Sequence record: SRR33789315_114
DNA length: 40,833 bases
Strand: one strand, 5' to 3'
In this document: piece after piece, positions 18,753 to 40,620 of the stretch
Layout: every line of letters begins with the position of its first letter
How positions within the stretch are numbered: position 1 is the first letter of the stretch
Translations under genes and position numbers: made by a program
Notes under the pieces: generated by a model
Database searches by the model: none
Seen by the model: the letters and a program-made list of their open reading frames with translations, nothing else
Told to the model about the DNA's origin: nothing

Positions 18753-19320
18753 ATGCACAAAATCAGAGAATATTTTGAACAACTCGTTAATATAAATAAT
18801 AGCTATTGGGAACTATTCTCTTCCAAACTCCTAAAAAGTGAATATCCAAAAAAGACAACACTATTAAAAATTGGTCAAACAGAAAAGCATTTATCTTTAA
18901 TAGAAAAAGGCGCTATCCGATTTTTTATTCCAAAAATTGACAACGACTTGACTTTCGTATTTTGTTTTGAAAACCAATTTGTAAGTGCCTACGATTCGTT
19001 TTTGACCCAAAAACCTTGTGATTACCAACTGGAGACGCTGACCAAAACCACACTCTGGCGTATTTCGCATAAAAACCTCTAAGAAATCTATGCCCATTCA
19101 GAAGTAGGCAATACCATAGGCAGATTGACTGCCAAAAACCTCTTTTTGATAAAATCAGCTAGGGAACAATCGCTTTTTAAACGAAACAGCTGAAGAAAGA
19201 TATTTGTCTCTTTTCGAAAAACTCCCCAACTTGATTAAGGAAATACCTCTAAAATATATTGCATCCTACATAGGGATAACACCACAAGCACTCAGTCGAA
19301 TACGAAAGCGCATTTCTTAA
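18753..19320 (+). pseudogene. Crp/Fnr-family transcriptional regulator (nonsense plus frameshift)
   Basis: cNMP-binding-domain-like N-terminus (IEKGAIRFF, FCFENQFVSAYDSFL). TAA at 19080-82, then a shift in the T-run near 19175 restores ETAEERYL...[25 protein letters not shown]. Confidence 0.88.
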
Positions 19321-25281: not shown

Positions 25282-25685
25282 GTGAGGAAACAACGTCCCG
25301 AAAAAGGGAATTCTTCTTATAATCAGTCCATAAATACAAAAAGAGATTCGGTGAGCTTGATAAGTTTTAAAAAAGAAATGAAGCGTGTGATGAAATTTCA
25401 TGCTATGGGAGGCAAAATTACTGTAGGAACAGATCCTACCGGGAGCGGAAAAACCATTGCTGGCTATGCAAACCAACGATTAATTGAACTCCTTATGGAG
25501 ACGGGCTTTAGCATTGAGGAAACCATAAAAATAGCCACACTTAATGGAGCCGTGTATTTAGGAATTGAAAAAGAAACAGGAACGATAACAGTAGGAAAAG
25601 AAGCTAATTTGGTTTTGATAAATGGAGTTGTCTTTGACGCTAAAAAATACTTGATGTTGTAAAAGGAAAGGTCGGACTCTATTAA
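25282..25685 (+). pseudogene. C-terminal remnant of an amidohydrolase
   Basis: ITVGTD, GFSIEETIKIATLNGAVYLG and GTITVGKEANLVLING. The tail KILDVVKGKVGLY* is in a shifted frame and the N-terminal metal-binding part is absent. Confidence 0.8.
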
Positions 25686-25764
25686 AAATCTCCACCTAAC
25701 AAAGCTATTAGCTATACCTTCTTTCCCGTCCTTTTAGAAATCCCGATGTATGAGCTGCTAAAGA

Positions 25765-25937
25765 GGTATTCCCAAAAGCGTTTTAGACAAAATCTTTCAA
25801 CCCTTTTTACGACCAAACCCACCAGACAAGGAACAGGTTTAGGATTATCTATGAGTTATGATATTGTAAAAGCACACGGTGGGGAATTAAAAGTGGAAAC
25901 CAAGGAAGGTTTGGGTACAGAATTTACCATTGTATAA
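25765..25937 (+). pseudogene. Remnant of a histidine-kinase HATPase_c C-terminus
   Basis: With one frameshift reads [48 protein letters not shown], paralogous to 29636-29810. Confidence 0.85.
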
Positions 25938-25960
25938 TCACTATAATAATATGTATCTTT

Positions 25961-28900
25961 ATGAATTACAGACTGATATTAACCATGAGATTGAACCCGG
26001 TATTTTTTTTTTATTTTCTAAGTTTATATACGGTGCTTGGTTTTAGCCAAGAAGATACCCTAGAAATCAATCCCTCCTACTTATCCATCGCAGACGGGCT
26101 GGCCTCTCCCACTGTAATGGATGTTTTTCAAGATAGTTATGGGTTATTATGGATTGCCACGTCAAACGGACTTCAAAAATACGATGGGTATAAGCTAGAC
26201 ACCTTTAAAAATATTCCCAGCAAAGCTACCAGCTTACAAAACAACAGCACGTGGGGCATTGAAGAAGATGCCGCTCACAATATATGGGTAGCTACAGCAT
26301 ATGGGCCTTCTCGGTATAACCGGCAGACAAACCAGTTTACCAATTATCCGTTTTACCAAGCCTTTAATGTACCTATAGACAACAGCCTTGTCTTTAACAT
26401 TTTTAAAGATTCTCAAAACAGACTTTGGGGACTTGGCCTATCAGTAGACTTGGCAAAATATGACCCTGAGGAAGATCAATGGAAGTTTGCTGAATATGCT
26501 ATTCCTGATTCAGATAATCCACCGCATTATGGGCACGCTTTAGCAATTACAGAAGATCGTTCGGGGACTATTTGGTTTGGATCCGGCATTTATGGGTTAA
26601 TGCGTATGGCTAAAAATGAGACGGCGTTTAAACCCATTCCTATAGAAAGGACCGGTGATGTTGATTTTACCCTTGAGGCCAATCAAATCACTTCACTCTA
26701 TTCAGATGCTAATACTATCTTATGGATAACTACACGTACAGGCATTTATAAATACAACCCTAAAACGGGTGCCCTTAGTACCCTAAAAAAATACAAGGAT
26801 GATCTTACCAATACTTACAGCCACCTGAACCGAATTTTACCCGATGCGCAAGGTAACATCTGGATTGCAAACAATTACCATGGCATACTCAAGTTTGAGG
26901 GTCTTTCAGACCGTTTTAAGGAGCTAACGATTGCCGGAAAAATAAAAATGCAGGGCGGTGATTGGAATATCACCATAACAGATTTCATTATCGATCAAAG
27001 CGGCATATTCTGGTTAGGGAGTATGGAAGCGGGTCTGCTAAAATACGACCCGGTGAATAAGCCCTTTACCCATTTAACTCATGACGAGGCAAATCCCCAA
27101 AGCTTGAGCTCCAATTTAATCTTTGGGGTTTTGGCTTCAACCGTTAAACCCGGAACAGTCTATGTAGGAACACGAGGAAGTGGATTTAATATTTTTGATC
27201 CCAAAAAGAAAACTTTTGAAAAAATAACCTTTAAAGCAAAAGATGATCGATATGGGGGATCTGTGAGGAGCTTCGCAGAAAATAAGGATGGTATACTTTG
27301 GTTGGGCACGTGGGGAGATGGGCTGATAAAATTAGACAAAAACTACCAAGAAATCAAACGTTATAAATATGATTCTTTAAACAGCAATTCTATCCCTAAT
27401 AATCAGGTACGCATACTTAAAAAAAATAAAAAGGGGGACGTATGGATAGGTACGGGTAACGGGCTTACGATATTACGTGAGGCAACCGGTAATTTTCAAA
27501 GGTTAGTTACTAAAAACACAAAAGTATATCCCCATACACTTATCAAACGACTGGAAGAGGATTCCCAAACCAGTCAAAAAGTCGGGATGATTGATAAAGT
27601 TCAAGATTTTGCAGACAAGTCCCTCCCCATAGAAATAAAAACCGCCGGTACCTACTGGGTCATGACAGTGGGAGAAGGGGACGTTACGGGTTTGTTTGAT
27701 AAGGGCTGGATTGAAAATGCCACCTCAAAAGATACCATCTGGGATTTTAATTCTTATGACCATTCTTTTTATGCAGGTGGCGCTGATAAAAATAGAATGG
27801 TTATTGAACCTATAAAATTAGAACCAGGCTCTTATATCCTTCGTTATAAAACAGATGACAGCCACTCCTATGATAAATGGAACGCAAACGCTCCTGACCA
27901 AACGACATTGTATGGTATTATGCTCATCAAGCCGCGGGATGAAACCATTACTGAAACCTTTGAGCAAATGAATATAGCCTACCAAAAAGAACTTCTGCTT
28001 AGTGGTAACAATATTTTAGATATAGAAATAGATGACCAATATGTTTGGGTAAGTGCCCAAAGTAACGGACTCAACAAAATCGATTTGGCTACTAATACCA
28101 TTACGTATTATCGCTATGATCCAAAAGATGAAAACTCGTTAAGTAGTGATAATATTCTGGATATTTTAGAGGATAGCCATGGGATGATTTGGTTAGCAAC
28201 CATAGAAGGCATTAATAAACTAGATCCTGATACCGATAAAATTACCCGATATTCTGAACTAGACGGATTGCCTACTAATCTTACCGAAAGTATTTTAGAA
28301 GGCGATAATGGCCAGATGTGGATTGCCACTCAAAACGGACTTTCGCAAATGGTACCTAATGAAGCGCTGGATAAAGTGACCTTTATCAACTACAATTCTT
28401 CAGATGGACTAGGTGGTGATATCTTTATTTCCCAAACAGCAGCACGGTCTATAGATGGGCAATTTTACTTTGGTGGAGACCACGGGCTCACCACGTTCAA
28501 AAGTGTTACAGCAAACAATGTTCCGCCCGCATTACTTATTTCTGATCTATTAATCGCCAATAAATCGGTAAAAGAAATGGGTGCAGACAGCCCATTAACC
28601 CAAAGTTTACTCGATATAAATAACATAAATCTGGCTTACAATCAAAACAACCTGAGTTTTGAATTTGCAGCCCTGCATTATGCAAATCCCGAAAAAAACC
28701 AATATGCCCACAAATTAATTGGGTATGATGACGACTGGATCTATGACAACAGGAACTTTGCTTCATATACCAACTTGGATCCTAGAAAATACGACTTTGC
28801 AATAAGAGCCTCTAATGCTTACGGCATCTGGAACGAAGAAGGCAAAATACTAGCGATAACCATATCGCCTCCTTGGTGGAAAACCTGGTGGGCGTATTTG

Positions 28901-29854
28901 CTCTACGCCATAGGTTTATTAGGATTAGGTCTTGCCATTAACAGCACCTTACGCAGAAGAATTATCATACGAGAACGAGAACGCTCCCGCGAAAAAGAAT
29001 TGGCACAGGCCAAAGAGATAGAAAAAGCCTATGCTAATTTAAAAGAAACCCAATCCCAACTTATTCAGTCTGAAAAAATGGCTTCTCTTGGGGAACTTAC
29101 CGCAGGTATTGCGCACGAGATTCAAAACCCATTAAACTTTGTCAACAATTTCTCTGAAATTAACTCAGAACTCATTGCAGAAATGAAAGAGGAATTAAAA
29201 AATGGCAACTTGGAAGAAGTGGAAATATTGGCCAATGACATTGATGAGAACGAAAAGAAAATCATCTTTCACGGCAAACGTGCTGATGGTATTGTAAAAG
29301 GAATGTTGCAACACAGCCGTAGCGGTGGTAATATAAAAGAACCTACAGACCTAAATGTGCTGTGTGACGAATACTTGCGTCTCTCCTACCACGGTTTGCG
29401 TGCCAAGGACAAAAGCTTTAATGCCACCCTAAAAACAGATTTTGATCCTACTGTAGATAAGGTTAATATCATCCCGCAGGATATGGGACGCGTGATTTTA
29501 AACTTATTGACCAATGCCTTTTATGCCGTAAAAGAGAAGAAGAAAAACGCTCCTGAAGACTACAAACCAACTGTAACCATTAGTACCAAGAAACAAGAGC
29601 AAGCTGTAATTATAAAAATAGAAGACAACGCCAACGGTATACCTAAAAGTGCATTAGACAAAATCTTTCAACCCTTTTTCACGACCAAACCTACCGGGCA
29701 AGGAACAGGTCTGGGTTTAAGTATGAGTTATGATATCGTGACCAATGCACACGGGGGAACACTTGTCGTTGCTACAAAAGAAGGAATAGGATCCACGTTT
29801 ACCATTGAGTTGCCTTTAAACGAAACGGCTGAAACAAGAATACACTTATATTAA
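25961..29854 (+). CDS. Membrane sensor histidine kinase: Reg_prop beta-propellers with inserted domain, Y_Y_Y, TM, HisKA, HATPase_c
   Basis: Signal peptide (true start possibly ATG 25985), repeated D..G.IW.AT blades, FEFAALHYANPEKNQYAHKLIGYDDDW, PPWWKTWWAY TM, GELTAGIAHEIQNPLNF H-box, N-box NLLTNAF and G-boxes FFTTKPTGQGTGLGL. Confidence 0.93.
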   Translation: MNYRLILTMRLNPVFFFYFLSLYTVLGFSQEDTLEINPSYLSIADGLASPTVMDVFQDSYGLLWIATSNGLQKYDGYKLDTFKNIPSKATSLQNNSTWGIEEDAAHNIWVATAYGPSRYNRQTNQFTNYPFYQAFNVPIDNSLVFNIFKDSQNRLWGLGLSVDLAKYDPEEDQWKFAEYAIPDSDNPPHYGHALAITEDRSGTIWFGSGIYGLMRMAKNETAFKPIPIERTGDVDFTLEANQITSLYSDANTILWITTRTGIYKYNPKTGALSTLKKYKDDLTNTYSHLNRILPDAQGNIWIANNYHGILKFEGLSDRFKELTIAGKIKMQGGDWNITITDFIIDQSGIFWLGSMEAGLLKYDPVNKPFTHLTHDEANPQSLSSNLIFGVLASTVKPGTVYVGTRGSGFNIFDPKKKTFEKITFKAKDDRYGGSVRSFAENKDGILWLGTWGDGLIKLDKNYQEIKRYKYDSLNSNSIPNNQVRILKKNKKGDVWIGTGNGLTILREATGNFQRLVTKNTKVYPHTLIKRLEEDSQTSQKVGMIDKVQDFADKSLPIEIKTAGTYWVMTVGEGDVTGLFDKGWIENATSKDTIWDFNSYDHSFYAGGADKNRMVIEPIKLEPGSYILRYKTDDSHSYDKWNANAPDQTTLYGIMLIKPRDETITETFEQMNIAYQKELLLSGNNILDIEIDDQYVWVSAQSNGLNKIDLATNTITYYRYDPKDENSLSSDNILDILEDSHGMIWLATIEGINKLDPDTDKITRYSELDGLPTNLTESILEGDNGQMWIATQNGLSQMVPNEALDKVTFINYNSSDGLGGDIFISQTAARSIDGQFYFGGDHGLTTFKSVTANNVPPALLISDLLIANKSVKEMGADSPLTQSLLDINNINLAYNQNNLSFEFAALHYANPEKNQYAHKLIGYDDDWIYDNRNFASYTNLDPRKYDFAIRASNAYGIWNEEGKILAITISPPWWKTWWAYLLYAIGLLGLGLAINSTLRRRIIIRERERSREKELAQAKEIEKAYANLKETQSQLIQSEKMASLGELTAGIAHEIQNPLNFVNNFSEINSELIAEMKEELKNGNLEEVEILANDIDENEKKIIFHGKRADGIVKGMLQHSRSGGNIKEPTDLNVLCDEYLRLSYHGLRAKDKSFNATLKTDFDPTVDKVNIIPQDMGRVILNLLTNAFYAVKEKKKNAPEDYKPTVTISTKKQEQAVIIKIEDNANGIPKSALDKIFQPFFTTKPTGQGTGLGLSMSYDIVTNAHGGTLVVATKEGIGSTFTIELPLNETAETRIHLY

Positions 29855-30089
29855 ATGAAAAAGCATAATACCCTATGAAAAAAAATAAATCCAAACAGTC
29901 TTTTGTGTATTGTCTTGTTTTTCCCGTATTTTTAAGTATTGCTTTAATTTATCGTGGTTTAATCTTAAAAGTTAAGCACATCCTGCTATTGAAGTATACT
30001 AAATTATTCCAGCCCCCCTTATTATTTTTAAGTTTTGACGTTAGTATGCGAGAACCACAAAACCAAATGGATCTATTACTATTTAAGCT

Positions 30090-33000
30090 ATGAAAAAAGC
30101 CGATACATTTGATAATACTTCAGCAAATCTTGCCGATTTGTCTTCTCAGCTTAAGCAACGAGAGGCTGAGATTTCGCTAATTAAAAGCGTTCAGGAAGCG
30201 ATGGCTGCAGCGGTAGATATGCAAGGGATTTATGATTTAGTCGGTAATGAAATCAGAGATCTTTTTGATGCACAAGTAGTAGGGATTTATACTCTTGACG
30301 GCGATAAAAAAATGGAATACTTTCACTACCTCTATGAAGATGGCGAACGTATTTTTCCGGCACCCAGACCCTTAGACAAAATCCGCAAATTATTACTAGA
30401 GACCAAAGCGTTAATTCTTATCGATGAGAACCTTACTCAAAAAGTAGCCGAGATAACAGGAATTCCTGCTCAAGCAGTTCCTGGCACCAGAATACCTAAA
30501 TCGCTGCTGTTTGTTCCTATGCTAGTTAGAGGAAATATAAAAGGATATGTGAGTATTCAAAATCTGGATAAGGAACACGCCTTTAAACCTTCAGATATAC
30601 AGCTTTTAAGCACCCTTGCCAATACCTTGAGTAGTGCTCTTGAAAATGCACGCCTTTTTAATGAGACCGAACAGCGCAATGCAGAGCTCGCTGTAATTAA
30701 CAGCATACAAGGAGGTCTGGCTGCAGAGATGGATATTCAGGGGATTTATAATCTGGTGGGTGATAAAATACGCGATCTTTTTGATTCTCAGGTTACCGCA
30801 CTAAGTTCTTTTGATAAAGAAACCGGGATAGAACATTTTCATTACCTCTTTGAAGATGGAGAACGACTATATCCTGACTCGAGACCCTTAAACCCAATCC
30901 GAAAATGGATTATTAAGAATTCAACCTTATTACTGGTCAGTGAAGATGCAGATAATATCATATTTAAAATAACAGGAGAAGAACATGTGGCTGTTCCAGG
31001 AACCCGCCTTCCTAAATCAATGTTATTTGTACCGCTAAAATTAAGCGACGAAGTAAAAGGCTGTGTAAGTCTTCAAAATCTGGATAAAGAAAATGCTTTT
31101 AGCGAGTCAGATGTACAGCTTTTAAGCACCATCTCAAACAGTATGAGCGTAGCACTCGAAAATGCAAGACTGTTTAATGAGACCGAGCAACGCAATGCAG
31201 AACTGGCGGTAATCAATAGCGTGCAACAGGGGTTGGTAGCAGAAATGGATTTGCAAGGCATCTATGATCTGGTAGGCGATAAAATACGCATGCTATTTGA
31301 TGCCCAAGTTGCAGCAATAGGTATTTTCAACTTTGAAAATCAAACTGAAGAATTCAAGTATCTCTTTGAAGCCGGGGAACGCATGACTGCAAAACCGCGT
31401 CCCTATGATGGGATTAGGCAACGGTTGATAAGTACAAAAAAACTCATCAATATCGAGGATAATGCAGAAGAAGCCTTTACCACAATTACTGGTAAATCTC
31501 CAAATGCGGTTCCGGGAACGCAATTTCCTAAATCTATGGTTTTTGTCCCGCTCCTGCTAGGTGAGCAAGTAAAAGGCTATGTATCTCTTCAAAATCTGGA
31601 TAAAGAATATGCATTTAGCCCATCTGATGTTCGGCTTTTAAATACCCTTGCAAACAGTATGAGTGTGGCTCTAGAGAATGCTCGACTCTTTAATGAAACC
31701 GAGCAACGCAATGCAGAACTCGCCGTAATTAATAGTGTGCAGCAAGGATTAGTTGCAGAGATGGATATGCAGGGAATCTATAATCTGGTAGGGGATAGAA
31801 TCCGAAAGCTTTTTGACGCCCAAGTAACCGCTGTCGCCACCTTTAATTATGAAAACAATACCGAAGAGTTTCATTACATTTTTGAAGACGGGAAACATTT
31901 TAACTTAGACCCGCGTCCTATTGACAAATTCAGACAACATATAATTAATACCCAAGAAGTTATTTGTATTAATGAAAATATAGATGAGGTCTGGACACAA
32001 CTTACCGGTGAAAATCCTACTGTTATACCTGGAACGCAGTTTACAAAATCTGCCCTGTATGTACCTATGATGGTAGGTAAAGAAGTACGCGGCTATGTAA
32101 GTCTTCAAAATGTAGATAAAGAAAATGCCTTTCCAGAGTCTGATATTCGCTTGTTAAGCACGTTAGCAAACAGCATGACTGTTGCGCTGGAAAACGCACG
32201 CCTTTTTAATGAAACCGAACAGCGCAATGCAGAACTCGCTGTGATAAACAGTGTGCAAGAAGGTTTAGTTTCAGAAATGGATGTACAAGGCATTTATAAC
32301 TTGGTAGGCGACCGGTTACGAGATCTATTTGACGCACAAGCGGTGGTCATCGCCACCCTATTTCCGAAGGAAAAAAAAGAAGAATTTAATTATATCTACG
32401 AAAGCGGTGCCCGACATTATCCAGAAGCCCGAAGCTATAATAAAATACGCCAAAAATTAATAGACACCAGAGAAGTGATCTGCATCAATAAAGATGCTTC
32501 CAAATCGGCTAAAGTAGTACCGGGAACTAAGGAACCTAAATCGATGCTCTTTGTCCCGTTAATCATTTCAGATGTGGTAGAAGGCTACATCAGCCTGCAA
32601 AATATAGACCGTGAAAATGCCTTTAGCGATTCAGATATTCGGTTTTTAAGCACGCTAGCTAATAGTATGACCGTAACGCTGGAAAATACCCGGCTTTTTA
32701 ATGAAACGAAGCGTTTACTCGCCGAGACTGAACAATGGGCGACAGAGATGCAAACTGTTAATCATATAAGCCGCGCCCTGGTTGCTCAGCTTGAATTTGA
32801 TACGTTAATAAATCTCGTGGGCGAACAGATGAAAGATACCTTTAAGGCAGATATCGTTTATCTCGCCATTCACGACCAAGAAAATGGGATGCTGCACTTT
32901 CCCTATACTTATGGGGATTATGCCGCATCAAGACCTTTTGGTAATGGCATCACAGAAAAAATTATCACAACCCAAGAGCCGTTATTAATCAATCAAAATC

Positions 33001-34031
33001 TAGATAAAGCCTATGAAAGGCTTAAGGCCGAAAAAAAGGGTAAAACAGTGGAGTCTTACTTGGGAGTTCCCATTCTTTCCGGGAAAAAATCCATAGGCGT
33101 TCTTAGTGTTCAAAGTACGGAGCAAGAAAATAGATTTAATGAAAATGACTTACGCTTGCTTACTACTATTGCAGCTAACTTAGGTATTGCCATTCAAAAT
33201 GCCGAAGCTTATAGAAAACTACAGGCCGCCTTAATTGACCTTAGAGCTGCACAAGAACAACTCGTACAACAAGAAAAACTGGCCTCTCTAGGACAACTCG
33301 CCGCAGGAATAGCACACGAAATTAAAAACCCATTGAATTTTGTAAATAATTTTTCTGAATTAAATATTGAGCTCATCGATGAGATTGTTGAAGAGCTTGC
33401 ACAACTCGAAAAAAATGACACCATAGCAGGTGTGTACGAGATCCTAACAGATGTACGTACTAATCTTAAGAAAATACACCAACACGGTACACGCGCAGAT
33501 AGTATCGTGAAGTCTATGCTACAACATAGCCGGGGCGGGAGCGGAATAATAGAACCTACAGATCTTAATGAACTGATTAAGGAATATGTAAATCTGGCTT
33601 TTCACGGGATGCGTGCCGGTAAAAAAGTAATGAATGTCTCGATAGACCTGCAGCTGGATGAAAAATTAGGGCTGGTTCCCATAATAGGGGAAGATTTTAG
33701 TCGGGTAATTCTTAATTTATGCAATAATGCTTTTGACGCGATGTGGGAGAAGATGCGTAGTGTAGCAGATTACAGTCCCAAGTTAACCGTACGTACTTTT
33801 AAAGACAAAAACTACCATATAGAAGTGACGGACAACGGTCCCGGAATTCCTAAAGAATATGCAGACAAGGTCTTACAACCCTTTTTCACTACTAAAAAAG
33901 GAACCGATGGCACTGGACTAGGTCTCTCTATTACTAATGATATCATTAAAGCGCACAGGGGCGAATTAGCTATTGATACGCAAAGCGGAAAGGACTCCTA
34001 TACCAAATTTAAAATTGAACTACCTAAATAA
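30090..34031 (+). CDS. Cytoplasmic histidine kinase with six tandem GAF domains
   Basis: Units start at 30156, 30672, 31188, 31704 and 32220 (516-nt period), plus a divergent one at 32733. They carry PKSMLFVP / SLQNLDKE.AF...D / ALENARLF motifs. H-box GQLAAGIAHEIKNPLNF, DNGPGI and FFTTKKGTDGTGLGL; no TM segment. Confidence 0.93.
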   Translation: MKKADTFDNTSANLADLSSQLKQREAEISLIKSVQEAMAAAVDMQGIYDLVGNEIRDLFDAQVVGIYTLDGDKKMEYFHYLYEDGERIFPAPRPLDKIRKLLLETKALILIDENLTQKVAEITGIPAQAVPGTRIPKSLLFVPMLVRGNIKGYVSIQNLDKEHAFKPSDIQLLSTLANTLSSALENARLFNETEQRNAELAVINSIQGGLAAEMDIQGIYNLVGDKIRDLFDSQVTALSSFDKETGIEHFHYLFEDGERLYPDSRPLNPIRKWIIKNSTLLLVSEDADNIIFKITGEEHVAVPGTRLPKSMLFVPLKLSDEVKGCVSLQNLDKENAFSESDVQLLSTISNSMSVALENARLFNETEQRNAELAVINSVQQGLVAEMDLQGIYDLVGDKIRMLFDAQVAAIGIFNFENQTEEFKYLFEAGERMTAKPRPYDGIRQRLISTKKLINIEDNAEEAFTTITGKSPNAVPGTQFPKSMVFVPLLLGEQVKGYVSLQNLDKEYAFSPSDVRLLNTLANSMSVALENARLFNETEQRNAELAVINSVQQGLVAEMDMQGIYNLVGDRIRKLFDAQVTAVATFNYENNTEEFHYIFEDGKHFNLDPRPIDKFRQHIINTQEVICINENIDEVWTQLTGENPTVIPGTQFTKSALYVPMMVGKEVRGYVSLQNVDKENAFPESDIRLLSTLANSMTVALENARLFNETEQRNAELAVINSVQEGLVSEMDVQGIYNLVGDRLRDLFDAQAVVIATLFPKEKKEEFNYIYESGARHYPEARSYNKIRQKLIDTREVICINKDASKSAKVVPGTKEPKSMLFVPLIISDVVEGYISLQNIDRENAFSDSDIRFLSTLANSMTVTLENTRLFNETKRLLAETEQWATEMQTVNHISRALVAQLEFDTLINLVGEQMKDTFKADIVYLAIHDQENGMLHFPYTYGDYAASRPFGNGITEKIITTQEPLLINQNLDKAYERLKAEKKGKTVESYLGVPILSGKKSIGVLSVQSTEQENRFNENDLRLLTTIAANLGIAIQNAEAYRKLQAALIDLRAAQEQLVQQEKLASLGQLAAGIAHEIKNPLNFVNNFSELNIELIDEIVEELAQLEKNDTIAGVYEILTDVRTNLKKIHQHGTRADSIVKSMLQHSRGGSGIIEPTDLNELIKEYVNLAFHGMRAGKKVMNVSIDLQLDEKLGLVPIIGEDFSRVILNLCNNAFDAMWEKMRSVADYSPKLTVRTFKDKNYHIEVTDNGPGIPKEYADKVLQPFFTTKKGTDGTGLGLSITNDIIKAHRGELAIDTQSGKDSYTKFKIELPK

Positions 34032-34046
34032 TTTAAAATAGATAAA

Positions 34047-34421
34047 ATGAAAATATTAATTGTAGATGATGAAAAAGATGTAGAAACACTCTTCCGCCAG
34101 AAGTTTAGAAAAGAAATAAAAAACAAAGAACTACACCTGAATTTTGCCTTTTCTGGGAGTGAAGCCTTAGAAATCTTAAATAAGAGAAACCCGCCAGAGG
34201 TAGTGTATGTTTTTTCAGACATCAATATGCCCGGAATGACAGGCTTAGAATTATTAGAAAAAATAAAAGCCCAATACCCTAAAATAATTGTGAGTATGAT
34301 TTCTGCGTATGGAGATAGCGAAAACTATAACATCGCGATTAATTCTGGAGCTAAACAATTTTTTACAAAACCTATTGATTTTGAATCACTTAAAAAAGAA
34401 ATCAAGCAGTTACAGAATTAA
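34047..34421 (+). CDS. Single-domain response regulator (receiver only)
   Basis: ILIVDDE, SDINMPGMTG (phospho-Asp), ISAY and TKPI. Confidence 0.93.
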   Translation: MKILIVDDEKDVETLFRQKFRKEIKNKELHLNFAFSGSEALEILNKRNPPEVVYVFSDINMPGMTGLELLEKIKAQYPKIIVSMISAYGDSENYNIAINSGAKQFFTKPIDFESLKKEIKQLQN

Positions 34422-34451
34422 TAGATTACAACTAAATTAAAATTATTAAGG

Positions 34452-35492
34452 ATGGTTAAAATACTGGTAGTTGACGACGAAATAGATTTAGAAACGCTTA
34501 TAAAACAGAAATTTAGAAAACAAATCCGTGAAAAGGAATATGAATTTGTATTTGCTATAAATGGCGTAGATGCGTTAGAAAAACTTCAAGTAGAGCCCGA
34601 TGTAGATATCGTATTAAGCGATATCAATATGCCCGAAATGGATGGCCTCACCCTCTTGAGCAAAATCAGTGAACAGAAACCCTTACTTAAAGCGGTTATT
34701 GTTTCGGCTTATGGCGATATGGAAAACATTAGAACAGCTATGAATCGCGGTGCTTTTGATTTTATTACCAAACCCATCAACTTTGAAGATCTCATCATCA
34801 CGATCAAAAAAACCATTACATACAGTAACCAAATAAAAGAAACCCTTCAAGCCATAAAAGAAAACAATATCCTTAAAATGTATGTAGATGCCAATGTATT
34901 AAACTTTATGGCTAGCCGAGAATTTGAATCTACCTTACTGGCTAATGAAACTATTGAGGCTACTGTTATGTTTATCGATTTATGCGGGTTTACTAAAATT
35001 AGTGAAACGGCTCCCGCAGATACCGTGGTAAATATGATAAATACCTACTTTGATGTTATGGTCAAAGAAATCATGGAGCAAAAAGGATTTATCGATAAAT
35101 TTATTGGCGACGCTATTATGGCTGTATTTAGAGGAGAATATCATCTAGATCGCGCTATAGATGCTGCATTGGCCGTTAGAAACAAAATGAATAAACTTCC
35201 TAAAATGAAGGATTTAGGAGATTTTGAACCCAAGGTATCTATAGGAATAAAAAGTGGCGAGATGATTTCAGGAAATATAGGCTCAGCCAGTTTAAAAAGA
35301 TTGGATTATACCGTAATTGGGGACACCGTAAATACTGCGGCTCGTATGCAGGATGCCGCACAGGCAAATCAGATTGTAATTTCTGATGCATGTTTTCAAA
35401 AAGTAAAAGAATCTTTTCGCTGCCAAGAATTGGGTAGCATTACTGTAAAAAATAAGGTAAATCCCCTTCGGATTTATGAAGTAATGGAATAA
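34452..35492 (+). CDS. Response regulator fused to a class III adenylate/guanylate cyclase domain
   Basis: Receiver motifs [15 protein letters not shown] and TKPI, then cyclase motifs [34 protein letters not shown] and [16 protein letters not shown]. Confidence 0.93.
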
Positions 35493-35530
35493 TTGCAAGC
35501 CGAAGCCAGTTTACTAATAATACTTAAACG

Positions 35531-36103
35531 ATGGAAGAAAAAGAAATCTCACAAGAAATCCCTTTATCACCACATACTAAAAACAAACATACAGATGATC
35601 TTGTTGACCACTATTGGGGCAGCATTAATTATGTGACCAGCCTTATAAAAGCTTCAGAATTAAAAGCAGGTCTAATTTTATCCTTCTATGGGATTTTATT
35701 GAATTTCATCTACCAAAGCGTTTCCATGATCGTGACGGAGTTTCCTAATGAAATTTTCCTCTTCATACTGTTGGGATTGTGGTTTTGCTGTACGGTGGTA
35801 TCTATTTTCTTTAGTATACGTTGTTTTATTCCTAGGATAGAAGGAAAATTTGATAAAAACATTTTTTTCTTCAGAGATGTCATTACCAAATTTGGTAGTG
35901 TGAATGAATTTTCAAAAACGTTTTACAGAATAAGCGTTGATGAAGATCAATTGTTTGATCAATTAGGTCAACAGATTTATGTTATCTCTAAGATTGCAAC
36001 CCTAAAATTTCAGAACGTAAACTTCTCCCTACGCTTTTTAGCATTGGGTCTTATGCTTTTGCTTGTAGTAGTAGGATATTATCTTGTCGTTACATTAACT
36101 TAA
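35531..36103 (+). CDS. Pycsar-effector-like (PycTM/DUF5706-type) three-TM membrane protein
   Basis: LIKASELKAGLIL (cf. ADxKA) then TM1-TM2, IPRI, NIFFFRDV, QIYVISKIATLKF and a C-terminal TM; 38 nt downstream of the cyclase. Confidence 0.75.
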   Translation: MEEKEISQEIPLSPHTKNKHTDDLVDHYWGSINYVTSLIKASELKAGLILSFYGILLNFIYQSVSMIVTEFPNEIFLFILLGLWFCCTVVSIFFSIRCFIPRIEGKFDKNIFFFRDVITKFGSVNEFSKTFYRISVDEDQLFDQLGQQIYVISKIATLKFQNVNFSLRFLALGLMLLLVVVGYYLVVTLT

Positions 36104-36660
36104 AAGAGACAATTAATATAACTTTTTTGTTTATTTAATAGTGTTCCCCAATCACTATACTTGCTTACGGTGCTTTTTTATCTATTCAATTAAATAGACC
36201 TTATTTGGGATGAGTTATTATTGTAATAATATTCAAACCACACTTCACAATCCTCTCGTATACTTTAAAGAAATCTCCTTAGTTAATATAAAAAATAACT
36301 ATAAAAGGTAATAACAATATATTGAGGCAAAAAAAGTATCATAAAATGTAAAATACATTTTACCCTATTCAATTATGAATTATTACACTTTAATAGAAAA
36401 GCTAATCTATTTAAGCTTCTATAGTGAATTTTTACAGAACACTTAAAAGTATTGTCAACCTGCCAGCTCCTAAAAACAAAGCTTCTCAAGTACTTGGTTT
36501 TTCTTTGCTAGGAATTTGGGTTTTGTTATATTAAACAGCCTTTTATTTTTATAAATTACTGGTTATGTACGATTGGTTCGAAATTATAAGGTTGATTAAA
36601 TAATTAATTTTCTAAAATGATATAGAAAGATCAATATCTTAAAGATGTTTATTTATACTT

Positions 36661-37096: not shown

Positions 37097-38560
37097 CTAC
37101 TTTTTAATAAACTTACTCACTAAAGATCCCTTATTTTCTTTAGTAATTTTGAAAAGATAAATACCACTGCTTAAATGGCTAATATTAATCTCTTCTATAT
37201 TATTAACAATCTGATCCTTGTTGTATACAACTTGCCCTTGGATGTTATAAATGATGATTTTTGCATCCTCAATATAATCATTTGGTAAAATAATATGCAA
37301 GACATCTTGAGCCGGATTTGGAAAGATATTGAAATTACAAGTATTTACATCTACCTCATTTTCTACTGCCAAAAGAGTTGAGCTACTAACAGAAACAAAT
37401 GACCAATCTTGGTTATAACCGCCATTATCGGTCCATTGAATATTATTGGCATTATTGGCTGTAGAAGCGCCACTAATATCAAGTAATAAACCACTATTGA
37501 CATTGATAATTTGATAGTAACCGTCGCCTTGATCAACTATATTCCATTTCTGGTTTGCGCCTCCATTACTGGGCCAGATTATATTATTAGCACCCGTACT
37601 AGTAGAAGCTCCATTTATATCAGCATATTTACCACTTGCAGAATGTATGATATTATATACACCAGTACTTACTTCATTAATCGTCCATCGAGATGCTGAA
37701 CTCCCATTTTGTTCATATTGAACGACTTGTGCTCCATTTACTGTAGAGGCATTAAGCGTATGAAGCGATTTTCCACTCTTCCTATTCACTATTTCATAAG
37801 TTCCAGTAAAGGTTCCTCCTCCATTTTGGGGTACAGGCTGATACCAACGGTAGTAATCAATATTAAAATAATTAGAGAAACCAGAGCCATCGGTATCTGC
37901 ACAATCTGTACCATTGCTAAGTATGACATACATAGGACTGGAAGGAACCGTGCTTCCAGTATGTGTATATATTAAATTTCCATCGATATAGTATTTTAAT
38001 AAACCTTGAGACCACTCTAATCCATAGGTATGCCATCCTGTGTAATCCCCTCCTTCGGTATTAGAATACCAAGAACCGTCATAATAAGCTTGGGTCATGT
38101 AATTTTTAGGAGCACCTCTAAATTCTGCAATATCTATTTCTGGAGGCCATCCGTCCTGAAGCATCCAGAATGCTGGCCAAGCACCACGATTATTAGGGAA
38201 AGAGGCTCTTATCTCTATATAACCATAAGTACGCCATTGTTTGGTCCATGCCCATCCTGATGTATACGGGAAAGACGCTCCTGAGGGTGCAACAAAAGAT
38301 CCTGAACGAGAACGTAGAACTAAAGAACCAGAACCATTTAAATAGGTATCTGCAGGAGCTATCCATGTACAACTACTCTGATTTTCAGAATCCCAGGGCG
38401 TAGAACCATATCCCCACATCGTGGTATTGAGGTTGGTTCCATTAAAATTATCTTCTTCTACTAATTGCCATTGATAACCCGAAGGAGGGGAAGGAGTTTG
38501 AGCCCATGTATAGGAATTAAGAGCTAGAAAGAGCGTTAATAAAAGTTCATTTGTTTTCAT
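37097..38560 (-). CDS. Secreted GH16 glycoside hydrolase with ricin-type (CBM13-like) lectin and T9SS C-terminal domain
   Basis: Signal peptide, YGYIEIRA, WPAFWML and WPPEIDIAE catalytic motif; QxW ricin repeats (NQKW, NQDW); IFPNPAQD...LSSGIYL...KFIKK CTD. Confidence 0.92.
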   Translation of the reverse strand: MKTNELLLTLFLALNSYTWAQTPSPPSGYQWQLVEEDNFNGTNLNTTMWGYGSTPWDSENQSSCTWIAPADTYLNGSGSLVLRSRSGSFVAPSGASFPYTSGWAWTKQWRTYGYIEIRASFPNNRGAWPAFWMLQDGWPPEIDIAEFRGAPKNYMTQAYYDGSWYSNTEGGDYTGWHTYGLEWSQGLLKYYIDGNLIYTHTGSTVPSSPMYVILSNGTDCADTDGSGFSNYFNIDYYRWYQPVPQNGGGTFTGTYEIVNRKSGKSLHTLNASTVNGAQVVQYEQNGSSASRWTINEVSTGVYNIIHSASGKYADINGASTSTGANNIIWPSNGGANQKWNIVDQGDGYYQIINVNSGLLLDISGASTANNANNIQWTDNGGYNQDWSFVSVSSSTLLAVENEVDVNTCNFNIFPNPAQDVLHIILPNDYIEDAKIIIYNIQGQVVYNKDQIVNNIEEINISHLSSGIYLFKITKENKGSLVSKFIKK

Positions 38561-38613
38561 AATGATAAAATATTAGTTAATAATCCTTTTAAAATCTCTA
38601 AACCTGAATTAGC

Positions 38614-40620
38614 TTACTTTTTAATAAATTTTTTGGTTACTATTTTTTTATTATTTGAAAATTTAACGATATATATTCCTGAATTTAAATAACTTATATT
38701 CAAATCTGTTCTTCCTAACTTCAAATCCTTTTTAGTAAACACTACTCTACCAGCAATATCATAAATAGCAATTTTGGAGTGGGAAGTGTATGCAGGGACC
38801 TCTACAAATAAGTGATCTGTCATCGGATTAGGATACATTTTTAAAGAAGAAAAACCTTCCCCCGAAGTTGATAATGCTTCGTCAACTATTATACGAAAGA
38901 CTTGATTGCTTCGTGCCCCGCAATCAGTTATATTGGTGGCGATAAAGGTACACGAACTGGTAGGAGTAAGTGTAAGAATTTGAGTTGTTCCTGAAACCTC
39001 GCAGCCAAACCAAGTCCACGTTCCTCCCGTAGTTTGCGGATTAAGGCTGATTTGATCTCCTGGTGCTATTGTAATGGCTGAAACGTTTTCCCAATTGCCT
39101 CCATTTACTTGTATATACGGAGAGATAACCGGAACCTCACACTCACTTCCATTTACTGTAAATACAAAATCTTGCGTAGTTTGTCCTCCACAATCATTGG
39201 TCAATATGGCGGTGGCCGTACATGAGTTGGTTGGGTAAAATACCTGCTCTCTATTAGATCCTGAGGTACCACAACCCACCCACTCCCAACTGCCTTCTAT
39301 AGGCTGGGGACCCAGCGCAACTTTATCACCAGCTTCAATAGTTGCAGAAGCCGCACTTTGCCACTCCCCATCATTGATTTGAAGATATGGGAATATTGTG
39401 GGTATATCACATCCTACTGCCAACTCCCAATACCTAAAATAATCTATTTCATAATAATTAGGAAAAGTACTATTTGCATCGGGAAAGCCTGCCCATGCGC
39501 CATTCCCATGAGAAAATATAGCATACATATCATAAAACTGATCGAAGAAATCGTGCCCCCACCATTGGTGGTCCCATTGGTTATCCAAATACCATATAAA
39601 GTCATTTTGCGCGCCGCTATCTTCAGAACCCATATAGAAACCAAAATTTCTAAAAGACTGATTAAATTCTGAAGCAACTGTAGTATATTGTTTAATGCTA
39701 CTGGCATTGCTTCCACTTTCATTGACGTAGTGAATGTTGTGAACAACTTCTGGAGTAGAGCTTAAATACTCCAGTATATCTATCTCTGGAGGCCAGCCTG
39801 AGCGTAATAACCAGAAAGCAGGCCATGTGCCTGTTGAGGCAGGCATTTTTAAACTGGCTTCCATATATCCGGGACGATGAATGCTGATCTTTTCAAAATT
39901 CTGAACCACACCAGCGATCCATTGAAGCTTGCCAAATATCTTCCATAATTCTTTATCTGAAGTTGAAGTAGTATTGACTATTATACCCGACTCGTCTTGG
40001 CTTAAATACATACCAGATTCTACATTCATAATAGTATACCACCCCTCATCCATACCTGTTAGAGTCCACTGTTGATCACTTGCTGAAGAAGCTGTTTGTT
40101 GTTTCAAATTAGCATCTGCACCACTTAGATAAAGCCCTGTACCCCTATTTTTAATTCGATAATCCATATCACTGATAAGTTCCAAAACCCATAGGGAAAA
40201 GTCCCAATTAGGGAATTCACCATAGGCTTCCTGTACTATCCCTGAACCTGAAGTAGCCTCTTCAGGATAGATATAAAGTGAATTCCCTTTATTCATTAAC
40301 CGGTAATTACTTTCGTTAGAATCTGGGTAATCTGCAGGAAACAGATTTTCACTATTTTTTAAGCGTAAAACGCCGTCCGCTACTTCAACATGGTTAGGAT
40401 GAATGTAATTATCACCACGTACTTCACCTCCTTGGTCATCTATGGTACCCCAATTGTAGTTTGTATTCCATTTAGTCTCATCAAGTTTATCTCCATCAAA
40501 GTTATCTTCCCATACCACCTCCCAATGATAGCCTGAAGGAGGAGATATTGGTGGTTTTTGTGCAAAAAGGGTCAAGGTGAACAAAATGAAACTAAGTAGC
40601 ACTGATTTTTGATTTTTCAT
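38614..40620 (-). CDS. Secreted GH16 glycoside hydrolase with inserted ricin-type domain, two Ig-like repeats and T9SS C-terminal domain
   Basis: WEDNFDG..LDETKW N-terminus, ricin-like block, GYMEASLKMP, WPAFWLL and WPPEIDILE; two PY(L/I)Q(I/V)N.G.W repeats; MYPNPM...LNSGIYIV...KKFIKK CTD. Confidence 0.9.
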   Translation of the reverse strand: MKNQKSVLLSFILFTLTLFAQKPPISPPSGYHWEVVWEDNFDGDKLDETKWNTNYNWGTIDDQGGEVRGDNYIHPNHVEVADGVLRLKNSENLFPADYPDSNESNYRLMNKGNSLYIYPEEATSGSGIVQEAYGEFPNWDFSLWVLELISDMDYRIKNRGTGLYLSGADANLKQQTASSASDQQWTLTGMDEGWYTIMNVESGMYLSQDESGIIVNTTSTSDKELWKIFGKLQWIAGVVQNFEKISIHRPGYMEASLKMPASTGTWPAFWLLRSGWPPEIDILEYLSSTPEVVHNIHYVNESGSNASSIKQYTTVASEFNQSFRNFGFYMGSEDSGAQNDFIWYLDNQWDHQWWGHDFFDQFYDMYAIFSHGNGAWAGFPDANSTFPNYYEIDYFRYWELAVGCDIPTIFPYLQINDGEWQSAASATIEAGDKVALGPQPIEGSWEWVGCGTSGSNREQVFYPTNSCTATAILTNDCGGQTTQDFVFTVNGSECEVPVISPYIQVNGGNWENVSAITIAPGDQISLNPQTTGGTWTWFGCEVSGTTQILTLTPTSSCTFIATNITDCGARSNQVFRIIVDEALSTSGEGFSSLKMYPNPMTDHLFVEVPAYTSHSKIAIYDIAGRVVFTKKDLKLGRTDLNISYLNSGIYIVKFSNNKKIVTKKFIKK

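Follow-up and report, generated by a model that had tools for sequence, protein, structure and literature searches.

A five-gene cluster at positions 25961 to 36103 of sequence record SRR33789315_114 (40,833 nucleotides (nt); the whole of this stretch is hereinafter designated the window) encodes two histidine kinases, a stand-alone receiver, a receiver-fused class III nucleotide cyclase and a small membrane protein of the PycTM family, the family of the membrane effector of the anti-phage Pycsar system. Judged on sequence, the cluster is a conserved, real system, and most likely a two-component-controlled, physiological branch of the Pycsar effector family. Under our best explanation, to which we assign a probability of about 0.5, it is a signalling module that is carried on the chromosome and passed on vertically in a subset of marine Flavobacteriaceae; many sensors would control cyclic AMP (cAMP) synthesis, and cAMP would act on an oligomeric PycTM-like membrane protein. 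The cluster comprises the following genes:

25961..29854, + strand: HK1, 1297 amino acids (aa), membrane histidine kinase with a periplasmic Reg_prop beta-propeller and Y_Y_Y sensor
30090..34031, + strand: HK2, 1313 aa, cytoplasmic histidine kinase with six GAF domains
34047..34421, + strand: stand-alone receiver (REC), 124 aa, Pfam Response_reg
34452..35492, + strand: receiver-fused class III nucleotide cyclase, predicted adenylyl cyclase, 346 aa, Pfam Response_reg and Guanylate_cyc
35531..36103, + strand: PycTM-family membrane protein, predicted to have three transmembrane helices (3TM), 190 aa, Pfam PF18967

All five open reading frames (ORFs) lie exactly where the first-pass annotation of this DNA had placed them, on the + strand, with intergenic gaps of 235, 15, 30 and 38 nt from HK1 through the PycTM gene. 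The architecture that it had read from the letters (propeller kinase, six-GAF kinase, lone receiver, receiver-cyclase, 3TM protein) agrees with the Pfam domains, and so does its remark that no DNA-binding response regulator is encoded, a DNA-binding domain being recognised by Pfam in none of the five proteins. An NCBIfam search brings none of the five to any model cut-off and gives the membrane protein no match of any kind.

The receiver, cyclase and membrane protein genes are adjacent and co-inherited

With one genome taken per species, a pattern scan identified 256 that encode a relative of the membrane protein, and the best 80 loci were kept. When these are searched with the window proteins (tblastn), the stand-alone receiver, the receiver-cyclase and PycTM prove to be neighbours, with order and strand conserved, in 46 of the 78 loci that can be judged (two cannot), and the arrangement is therefore not due to chance. 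In an even sample of 201 genomes of the family, an orthologue-grade PycTM (at least 56% identity) is present in 26 and the receiver-cyclase (10 candidates scored per genome) in 27; both occur in 20 genomes, where they are adjacent in 18, and the cyclase occurs without PycTM in seven. The pairing of membrane protein and receiver-cyclase on which the first-pass annotation had built its proposal is thus conserved in other genomes. A phylum-wide sample yields any match in 5 of 301 genomes, with two orthologue-grade matches, both already included in the family sample.

Relatives of the cyclase number at least 8000 at E ≤ 1e-10 (8000 of the 8000 scored), and the best 120, from many named Flavobacteriaceae genera, are mostly 76–85% identical. 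Relatives of the membrane protein number 855 at E ≤ 0.001; the best 120 are 61–80% identical, and orthologues retain 60–80% identity across genera. In five named genomes the cyclase is 85, 85, 82, 74 and 83% identical to that of the window, PanB 85, 84, 83, 79 and 78%, and PycTM 72, 60, 68, 61 and 64%; LeuC (80 and 64%) and LeuB (70 and 60%) can be compared in the two genomes having both. The PycTM tree groups by genus (Christiangramia, Aureibaculum, Xanthomarina, Altibacter, Gillisia and Aequorivita), with at least five changes of linkage (starred branches of the tree), or 14 by parsimony. Divergences of the cyclase and of PycTM are correlated (r 0.58), and none of 2000 permutations gives a value as high.

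At unlinked loci the neighbours of PycTM are unrelated housekeeping genes. Christiangramia gaetbulicola has its cyclase 17 kb away from PycTM, and in Aequorivita antarctica and Zunongwangia sp. H14 a receiver-cyclase orthologue was not found with the window query; each of the latter two has a cyclase carrying TPR repeats (hereinafter designated TPR-cyclase). One unlinked PycTM copy, located beside a transposase, is truncated.

Two further arrangements were seen around PycTM. An acidic protein of ~111 aa without a Pfam match (L021:9532-9867) is encoded at 32 of the 80 PycTM loci and is missing from the window; in 22 of the 80, linked and unlinked, it lies at most ~750 nt from PycTM on the same strand, either upstream or downstream, and it may be an accessory partner. 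In Gillisia (L073:5953-10560 and L074:3894-4972) a receiver precedes the PycTM orthologue with no cyclase between them; at L073 a 1127-aa PAS/GAF protein, in which a kinase domain is not recognised at E ≤ 0.001, is encoded upstream of the receiver. The Gillisia arrangement resembles a derivative of the module that lacks the cyclase.

The membrane protein belongs to the PycTM family and is predicted to self-associate

The membrane protein scores 58.4 bits against the Pfam PycTM family PF18967 (cut-off 27.2) and matches the PADLOC PycTM model at 3.1e-28, which bears out the similarity to PycTM suggested by the first-pass annotation. All 30 of its nearest ESM Atlas clusters carry PF18967, and NCBI names its orthologues 'Pycsar system effector family protein'. 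Hydropathy analysis reveals two strong segments at residues 71-103 and 162-190 and a weaker one at ~46-66. The AlphaFold2 model, with a predicted local distance difference test score (pLDDT) of 75.4, is all-helical, and its helices 19-70, 75-97 and 138-189 cover the hydropathy segments, so that the protein is predicted to span the membrane three times.

Modelling four copies together gives a score of 0.40, compared with 0.00 for the best of three controls. Of 30 proteins solved as pairs of one chain, 21 attain this mark, and of 23 solved as single chains none does; these counts are a rough guide here, where four copies were modelled. Contact agreement between the four-copy runs is at least 75% and the pLDDT of the partners at least 63. 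The predicted interface comprises residues 22-62 and 124-151, which are the most conserved stretches of the family. The model supports self-association. Solved relatives were not found: an alignment profile has no matches to PDB sequences at E ≤ 1, the best Foldseek E value is 0.94 in a PDB copy that lacks an EcPucTM-like complex, and a wide structural search returns generic helical bundles only (best Z 11.3, root-mean-square deviation 7.1 over 167 residues), under the level that the search tool treats as meaningful for helical proteins.

The cyclase resembles adenylyl cyclases and not PycC

Pfam recognises a Response_reg domain (3.3e-24) and a Guanylate_cyc domain (4.4e-24; PF00211, 85.5 bits against a cut-off of 21.9) in the cyclase. 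When the cyclase domain alone is compared with solved proteins (phmmer), the top match is Pseudomonas aeruginosa CyaB (PDB 3R5G; 99.8 bits, 2.1e-27), followed by photoactivated (83 bits), cyanobacterial and mycobacterial adenylyl cyclases. The uridylate cyclase BcPycC (7R65) reaches 24.4 bits (E 3e-4) and ranks 55th of 59, under the mammalian cyclases, and PaPycC (6YII) is not among these domain-only matches at E ≤ 0.01. The AlphaFold2 model (pLDDT 71.2) gives a consistent picture in Foldseek. The top full-length matches are the receiver-GGDEF proteins WspR, DgcR and PleD (4.4e-14 to 1e-11), CyaB ranks 11th (3.4e-12) and gives the best match to the isolated cyclase domain, and the matches listed include no PycC.

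Among 44 full-length orthologues (of 47 sequences, the three outside 340-365 aa being dropped from the alignment), the receiver residues D8, D9, D57, S85 and K107 are invariant, as are the metal-binding D176 and D220, base-contacting K216 and T287, and transition-state N294 and R298 of the cyclase domain. In CyaB and OaPAC the positions of K216 and T287 fall in the motifs KF[IV]GD and DYT, and we take a Lys/Thr (or Asp) pair at these positions to specify adenine. The passage on K497/D566 in the accessible text of the preprint on Pucsar (bioRxiv 10.64898/2026.08.12.744502) agrees with this assignment of positions. Judging from these residues, the product is most likely cAMP. The residue sets that determine specificity in PycC proteins, Y50/D94/R97 in BcPycC and F100/R142/Q144 in EaPycC according to the available portion of PMC11224242, would in comparison with Lys216/Thr287 argue against a pyrimidine messenger (cyclic CMP (cCMP) or cyclic UMP (cUMP)).

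The PADLOC PycC models do match the cyclase (1.5e-25, 88 bits). However, all eight unrelated class III cyclases that we took from related genomes as controls (TPR-cyclases, a kinase-receiver-cyclase and a Fer2-cyclase-globin protein) match PADLOC PycC as well, at 42-68 bits (1e-11 to 1.6e-19), and the match is non-discriminating for this reason. With CyaB at 99.8 and BcPycC at 24.4 bits, an adenine-type Lys/Thr pair and an unspecific PADLOC match, we reject the identification of the cyclase as a PycC.

In sequence and fold the cyclase domain is best matched by class IIIb adenylyl cyclases such as CyaB and the photoactivated OaPAC and bPAC, with which the cyclase has in common the Asp pair, the Lys/Thr base contacts and the Asn/Arg transition-state residues. 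It differs from them in its input, a receiver in place of MASE2 or BLUF, and in its coupling to the PycTM family. In layout it resembles PleD, WspR and DgcR, in which a receiver and a long helical linker likewise precede a nucleotide-cyclase-fold domain that acts as a dimer, which suggests phosphorylation-controlled dimer geometry. Their output domain is a GGDEF domain making cyclic di-GMP (c-di-GMP), whereas the class III domain here is predicted to make a cyclic mononucleotide.

Kinases with different sensors adjoin the receivers

HK1 contains Reg_prop (2.1e-32), Y_Y_Y (9.8e-15) and HATPase_c (1.1e-22) domains, with HisKA under the Pfam cut-off. It has a hydrophobic N-terminal segment and a single transmembrane segment at 975-993, and the propeller part is therefore periplasmic. 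HK2 carries GAF_2 in six stretches (1.8e-72), HisKA (1.9e-07) and HATPase_c (1.9e-19), and hydropathy reveals no transmembrane segment in it. The H-box histidines are H1052 in HK1 and H1076 in HK2, and both proteins possess a G2 box. Over 271 aa the two kinase cores share 51% identity, and their first DHp helices are almost identical. The stand-alone receiver has a Response_reg domain (2.7e-22) and no other Pfam domain; its translation displays the acidic pocket and the Ser and Lys motifs, and it is 54% identical (65/121) to the receiver domain of the cyclase. In linked loci its counterpart lies directly upstream of the cyclase and is 55-83% identical to that of the window.

The first-pass annotation spoke of a two-component phosphorelay. 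Its two-component part holds, with H-boxes, G2 boxes and HATPase_c in both kinases and intact receivers. The multi-step part does not: Pfam recognises neither an Hpt domain nor a hybrid-kinase receiver among the five proteins, which rules out a His-Asp-His-Asp phosphorelay and therefore leaves a branched two-component system. Because the kinase cores are alike and the receivers paralogous, we infer that HK1 and HK2 share both receivers, as partner specificity in such systems would lead one to expect. Networks in which several kinases converge on one regulator are familiar from Vibrio quorum sensing and the Pseudomonas Gac/Rsm kinases. As in those networks, at least two co-encoded kinases with different sensors would probably address the same receivers; in contrast to them, where the output is a transcription factor, the output here is a second-messenger cyclase with a membrane protein, and no Hpt is present.

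The gene directly upstream of the receiver is a histidine kinase in 25 of 25 linked loci tested, which were drawn from the 29 with sufficient upstream DNA. Their sensors vary: SnoaL_3 with a long unknown region in eight, Reg_prop/Y_Y_Y in six, multi-GAF in four, TPR in two and unrecognised in five. Second-upstream genes encode kinases in 20 of 22 cases, and third-upstream genes encode FIST proteins (5/8) or kinases (3/8). The best reading is that several kinases with varied sensors feed one cyclase.

Three-frame translation and tblastx reveal one more kinase fragment next to HK1:

25700..25945, + strand: frameshifted remnant of a kinase C-terminus, ~80 aa

One frame reads '...IFQPF...' and another '...TTKP..GTGLGLS..GGEL..EFTIV*'. 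By tblastx this stump is closest, at 84-90% over 42-43 aa, to the C-terminal ends of small kinases that are encoded second upstream at loci L014, L075 and L046 and carry HATPase_c by Pfam; it is most like the small FIST-associated kinases of related loci. By these translated similarities it is a decayed third histidine kinase. The stretch just upstream of HK1 as a whole (25282-25945) is one of gene decay, and its 126-aa ORF at 25282-25662 looks like the C-terminal fragment of an unrelated enzyme.

A second cyclase type pairs with PycTM paralogues

Distant PycTM paralogues, 31-44% identical to the window protein and above the Pfam cut-off, were examined in 14 other genomes of the family, and a TPR-cyclase adjoins them in 9 of these 14 loci:

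L096-L109, e.g. L096:2928-6104 and L105:2928-6096: TPR-cyclase, PycTM paralogue and sometimes an HD protein

The paired TPR-cyclases are 574-670 aa long and are confirmed by Pfam in eight loci and by tblastn only in L108; all 10 sequences carry a canonical Lys/Asp adenine pair. An HD-domain protein of ~195-200 aa is encoded alongside in five of the six TPR-cyclase loci in which a third gene was tested, and accounts for five of eight tested neighbours of that size. The L105 genome carries both modules, 11 kb apart. A different variant occurs in a genome with two diverged HK-REC-REC-cyclase cores (L114:2470-3958 and L115:2132-3929; 64-67% identical to the window cyclase), in which YitT_membrane/DUF2179 proteins take the usual place of PycTM, followed in one copy by an HD-domain protein. 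These sequences suggest that genes for sensory adenylyl-cyclase-type enzymes of Flavobacteriaceae as a rule lie together with that of a small membrane protein, to which a candidate phosphodiesterase gene is added in some cases. At L107:4318-5498, a PycTM paralogue adjoins a remnant of 142 aa, which matches the receiver-cyclase (residues 202-346) at 71% identity and looks like a decayed copy of it.

Proposed mechanism and alternatives

The mechanism that best fits these data is a phosphorylation-gated cyclase that signals to a membrane effector, as the first-pass annotation had supposed. Histidine kinases with different sensors, here the propeller of HK1 and the six GAF domains of HK2, would autophosphorylate on their H-box histidines and pass the phosphate to two paralogous receivers, the stand-alone REC and the REC of the cyclase; transfer to the same two receivers is expected because the DHp helices are nearly identical. 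The stand-alone receiver probably competes for phosphate as a sink or buffer. If the receiver-GGDEF regulators are a guide, phosphorylation of D57 would alter the geometry of the cyclase dimer through linker helix 111-137 and thereby switch the synthesis of a cyclic mononucleotide, most likely cAMP. The nucleotide would then act on the neighbouring oligomeric 3TM protein and change membrane permeability or potential, with a physiological, regulated output such as ion flux, growth arrest or dormancy.

Several observations weigh against this explanation, and a first group of them would fit a cyclase and a PycTM-like protein that are not a messenger-receptor pair, the nucleotide acting elsewhere (e.g. 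on a Crp-like protein) and the 3TM protein being independent, or anchoring or regulating the cyclase. Coupling of the two genes is not obligate. In 32 of the 78 loci a PycTM orthologue is present without such a cyclase within 10 kb; the unlinked copies, but for the truncated one, are full-length and keep 19-22 of 22 family-invariant residues; and PycTM lacks a cyclase orthologue in 6 of 26 genomes, as scored on 10 candidates per genome in draft genomes. The two PycTM genomes without a receiver-cyclase orthologue, the seven sampled genomes with a cyclase core and no PycTM, and the different, ~111-aa protein beside PycTM in 22 of 80 loci point the same way. Moreover, Pfam recognises no cyclic-nucleotide-binding domain in the 190-aa membrane protein, and longer fused forms of it are not found at E ≤ 0.001 among 1419 candidates, which is weak evidence.

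Even so, we regard two unpaired proteins as unlikely. The genes are adjacent in 18 of 20 genomes that have both, and the proteins diverge together. A second, independent pairing, that of a PycTM paralogue with another adenylyl-cyclase type, recurs in 9 of 14 loci, and genomes without the receiver-cyclase hold a TPR-cyclase that could supply the nucleotide. Characterised relatives of the membrane protein are nucleotide-activated effectors, as described in the available portions of PMC11224242 and bioRxiv 10.64898/2026.08.12.744502.

A second group of observations would suit a defence system derived from Pycsar, in which the cyclase is released for activity once two-component sensors perceive infection or damage to the envelope, and a PycTM pore opened by its product causes abortive infection. 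Every characterised member of the PycTM family, canonical and Pucsar transmembrane effectors alike, is an abortive-infection effector in the accessible text of PMC11224242 and bioRxiv 10.64898/2026.08.12.744502; the membrane protein clearly belongs to this family by Pfam and PADLOC, and both core genes match PADLOC Pycsar models. The spread of the module is patchy or clade-limited: with PycTM in 26 of 201 genomes only, we rejected its designation as a core gene of the family. Its position is variable, too. The genes that flank it in the window are shared by none of the 80 related loci, and some mobility of the module may be possible given this lack. Sensor domains turn over, which could be read as an arms race, and a buffering stand-alone receiver would suit a dangerous output.

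Against these points stands the bulk of the comparative evidence. The cyclase is far from solved PycC and near physiological adenylyl cyclases, and its PADLOC PycC match is shown to be unspecific by the eight controls. The window is free of other defence genes, as the first-pass annotation had stated, its remainder consisting of ordinary chromosomal genes. At related loci, 131 flanking proteins (of 162 ORFs; 19 of 23 loci) were compared with PADLOC models, and seven match at 1e-12, namely three sigma-54-activator-like proteins, two cyclases and partial mad2 and mad3 matches, all of them partial or generic. Among 72,556 plasmid and 50,697 phage records, none matches the membrane protein. Inheritance follows genus, and Reg_prop/Y_Y_Y, GAF, FIST and TPR are commonplace sensors of the environment. 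The part of bioRxiv 10.64898/2026.08.12.744502 that is accessible reports immune cyclase clades to lie on significantly longer branches than physiological outgroups, whereas the module cyclase is conserved at the level of PanB; in its sequence divergence the module behaves like the physiological outgroups and not like the immune clades. Neither the island or mobile context nor the fast evolution of a defence system is thus observed, with the patchy presence and the unconserved flanks counting the other way. Of the two readings that the first-pass annotation had left side by side, a sensor-triggered defence system and a non-defence signalling module related to Pycsar, we favour the second and consider the first quite improbable.

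A similarly small chance attaches to the same architecture and logic with a messenger other than cAMP, either cyclic GMP (cGMP) as in Pucsar or a pyrimidine nucleotide: class III specificity is not certain from two residues, the known ligands of the partner's family are cUMP, cCMP and cGMP, and Pycsar-related cyclases span UTP, CTP, GTP and possibly ATP (accessible text of bioRxiv 10.64898/2026.08.12.744502), but CyaB and the photoactivated adenylyl cyclases have the same pair as the invariant Lys216/Thr287, all 10 sequences of the second PycTM-linked cyclase type carry a Lys/Asp adenine pair, and the Glu/Lys guanine recognition described for PfPucC in the same text, like the BcPycC and EaPycC residue sets, is quite different.

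Relation to Pycsar and Pucsar

Like Pycsar, the signalling module proposed here combines a class III-fold cyclase gene with an adjoining PF18967 3TM gene, 38 nt downstream, and the presumed logic, in which the cyclase product, a cyclic mononucleotide, acts on a membrane protein, is the same. It differs in that its cyclase is receiver-fused and placed under a kinase array, is nearer to CyaB than to BcPycC and has Lys/Thr in place of the pyrimidine residue sets of PycC, and in that the module is slow-evolving and genus-following and lies in a housekeeping context. Pucsar, which comprises the cGMP cyclase PucC and the effectors PucTM or PucTIR, is comparable in using a purine cyclic mononucleotide (predicted here) and a pJV1-spdB3 3TM effector, but its cyclases, as presented in the accessible part of bioRxiv 10.64898/2026.08.12.744502, stand alone and form a fast-evolving immune clade, and PfPucC recognises its base by Glu/Lys and not Lys/Thr. 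The same source describes EcPucTM as a hexamer with three transmembrane helices per protomer and a beta-sheet-containing cytosolic appendage. The window protein resembles it in having three transmembrane-length helices and predicted self-assembly, and differs in that no such appendage is predicted.

The membrane protein and its two cyclase partners raise the possibility, which we hold tentatively, that the PycTM/3TM family has a conserved non-immune branch serving as a routine membrane output of cAMP signalling in Flavobacteriaceae, together with two kinds of sensor-regulated adenylyl cyclase, receiver-fused ones controlled by several kinases and TPR-fused ones that at some loci have an HD hydrolase beside them. 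To our knowledge, phage-triggered cell suicide is the sole known role of PycTM-family proteins, and cAMP signalling in Bacteroidota is poorly described. A slow-evolving branch controlled by two-component signalling would give the family a physiological role, the module being a case in which a physiological-type cyclase does associate with the PycTM effector family. If this is so, environmental signals and not phage would gate an oligomeric, pore-like protein, and a single messenger-receptor pair would have been put to two uses, Pycsar/Pucsar immunity and a physiological pathway, one of which descends from the other. Such a branch would offer a model for the relation between immune cyclic-nucleotide systems and housekeeping signalling.

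A practical consequence concerns genome surveys. Since PADLOC Pycsar models match both core genes and NCBI attaches the 'Pycsar system effector' name, defence counts in marine Flavobacteriaceae probably include such loci as false or unproven Pycsar calls. In the literature we did not find a receiver-fused cyclase with a PycTM partner described, although the supplementary cyclase lists (of the Pucsar preprint and the set of 967 PycC) might contain such members; the accessible portion of PMC13069673 makes no mention of a receiver, a histidine kinase or a two-component system, and no literature was found under the name DUF5706.

Other features of the window

A sigma-70 promoter scan gives 28 sites, fewer than the 38.3 in shuffled sequence, a convincing terminator was not found, and the Bacteroidota -7 motif TAnnTTTG occurs in none of the six intergenic stretches. 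Public sequencing runs covering 29600-36400 were not found, nor was an RNA data set. The rest of the window is a chromosome of Flavobacteriaceae type, with dnaK, umuDC-like genes, panB, the leu operon and a radical-SAM gene. Three of the five related genomes (those of loci L014, L075 and L039), although their PanB shares 83-85% identity, gave no match to LeuB, and LeuC was either not found or represented only by aconitase-like matches of 30-31%; these lineages may lack the leu operon, or the query may have failed to find it. A 109-aa ORF at 18753-19082 (+ strand) contains a cyclic-nucleotide-binding domain (PF00027, 1.2e-06). A Crp-like regulator would be longer, and the ORF may be a truncated gene or a stand-alone domain. 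Downstream of the module, at 37097-40620 on the - strand, two adjoining genes encode secreted proteins with GH16, ricin-type lectin and type IX secretion system (T9SS) sorting domains by Pfam, which are probably glycan-degrading enzymes.

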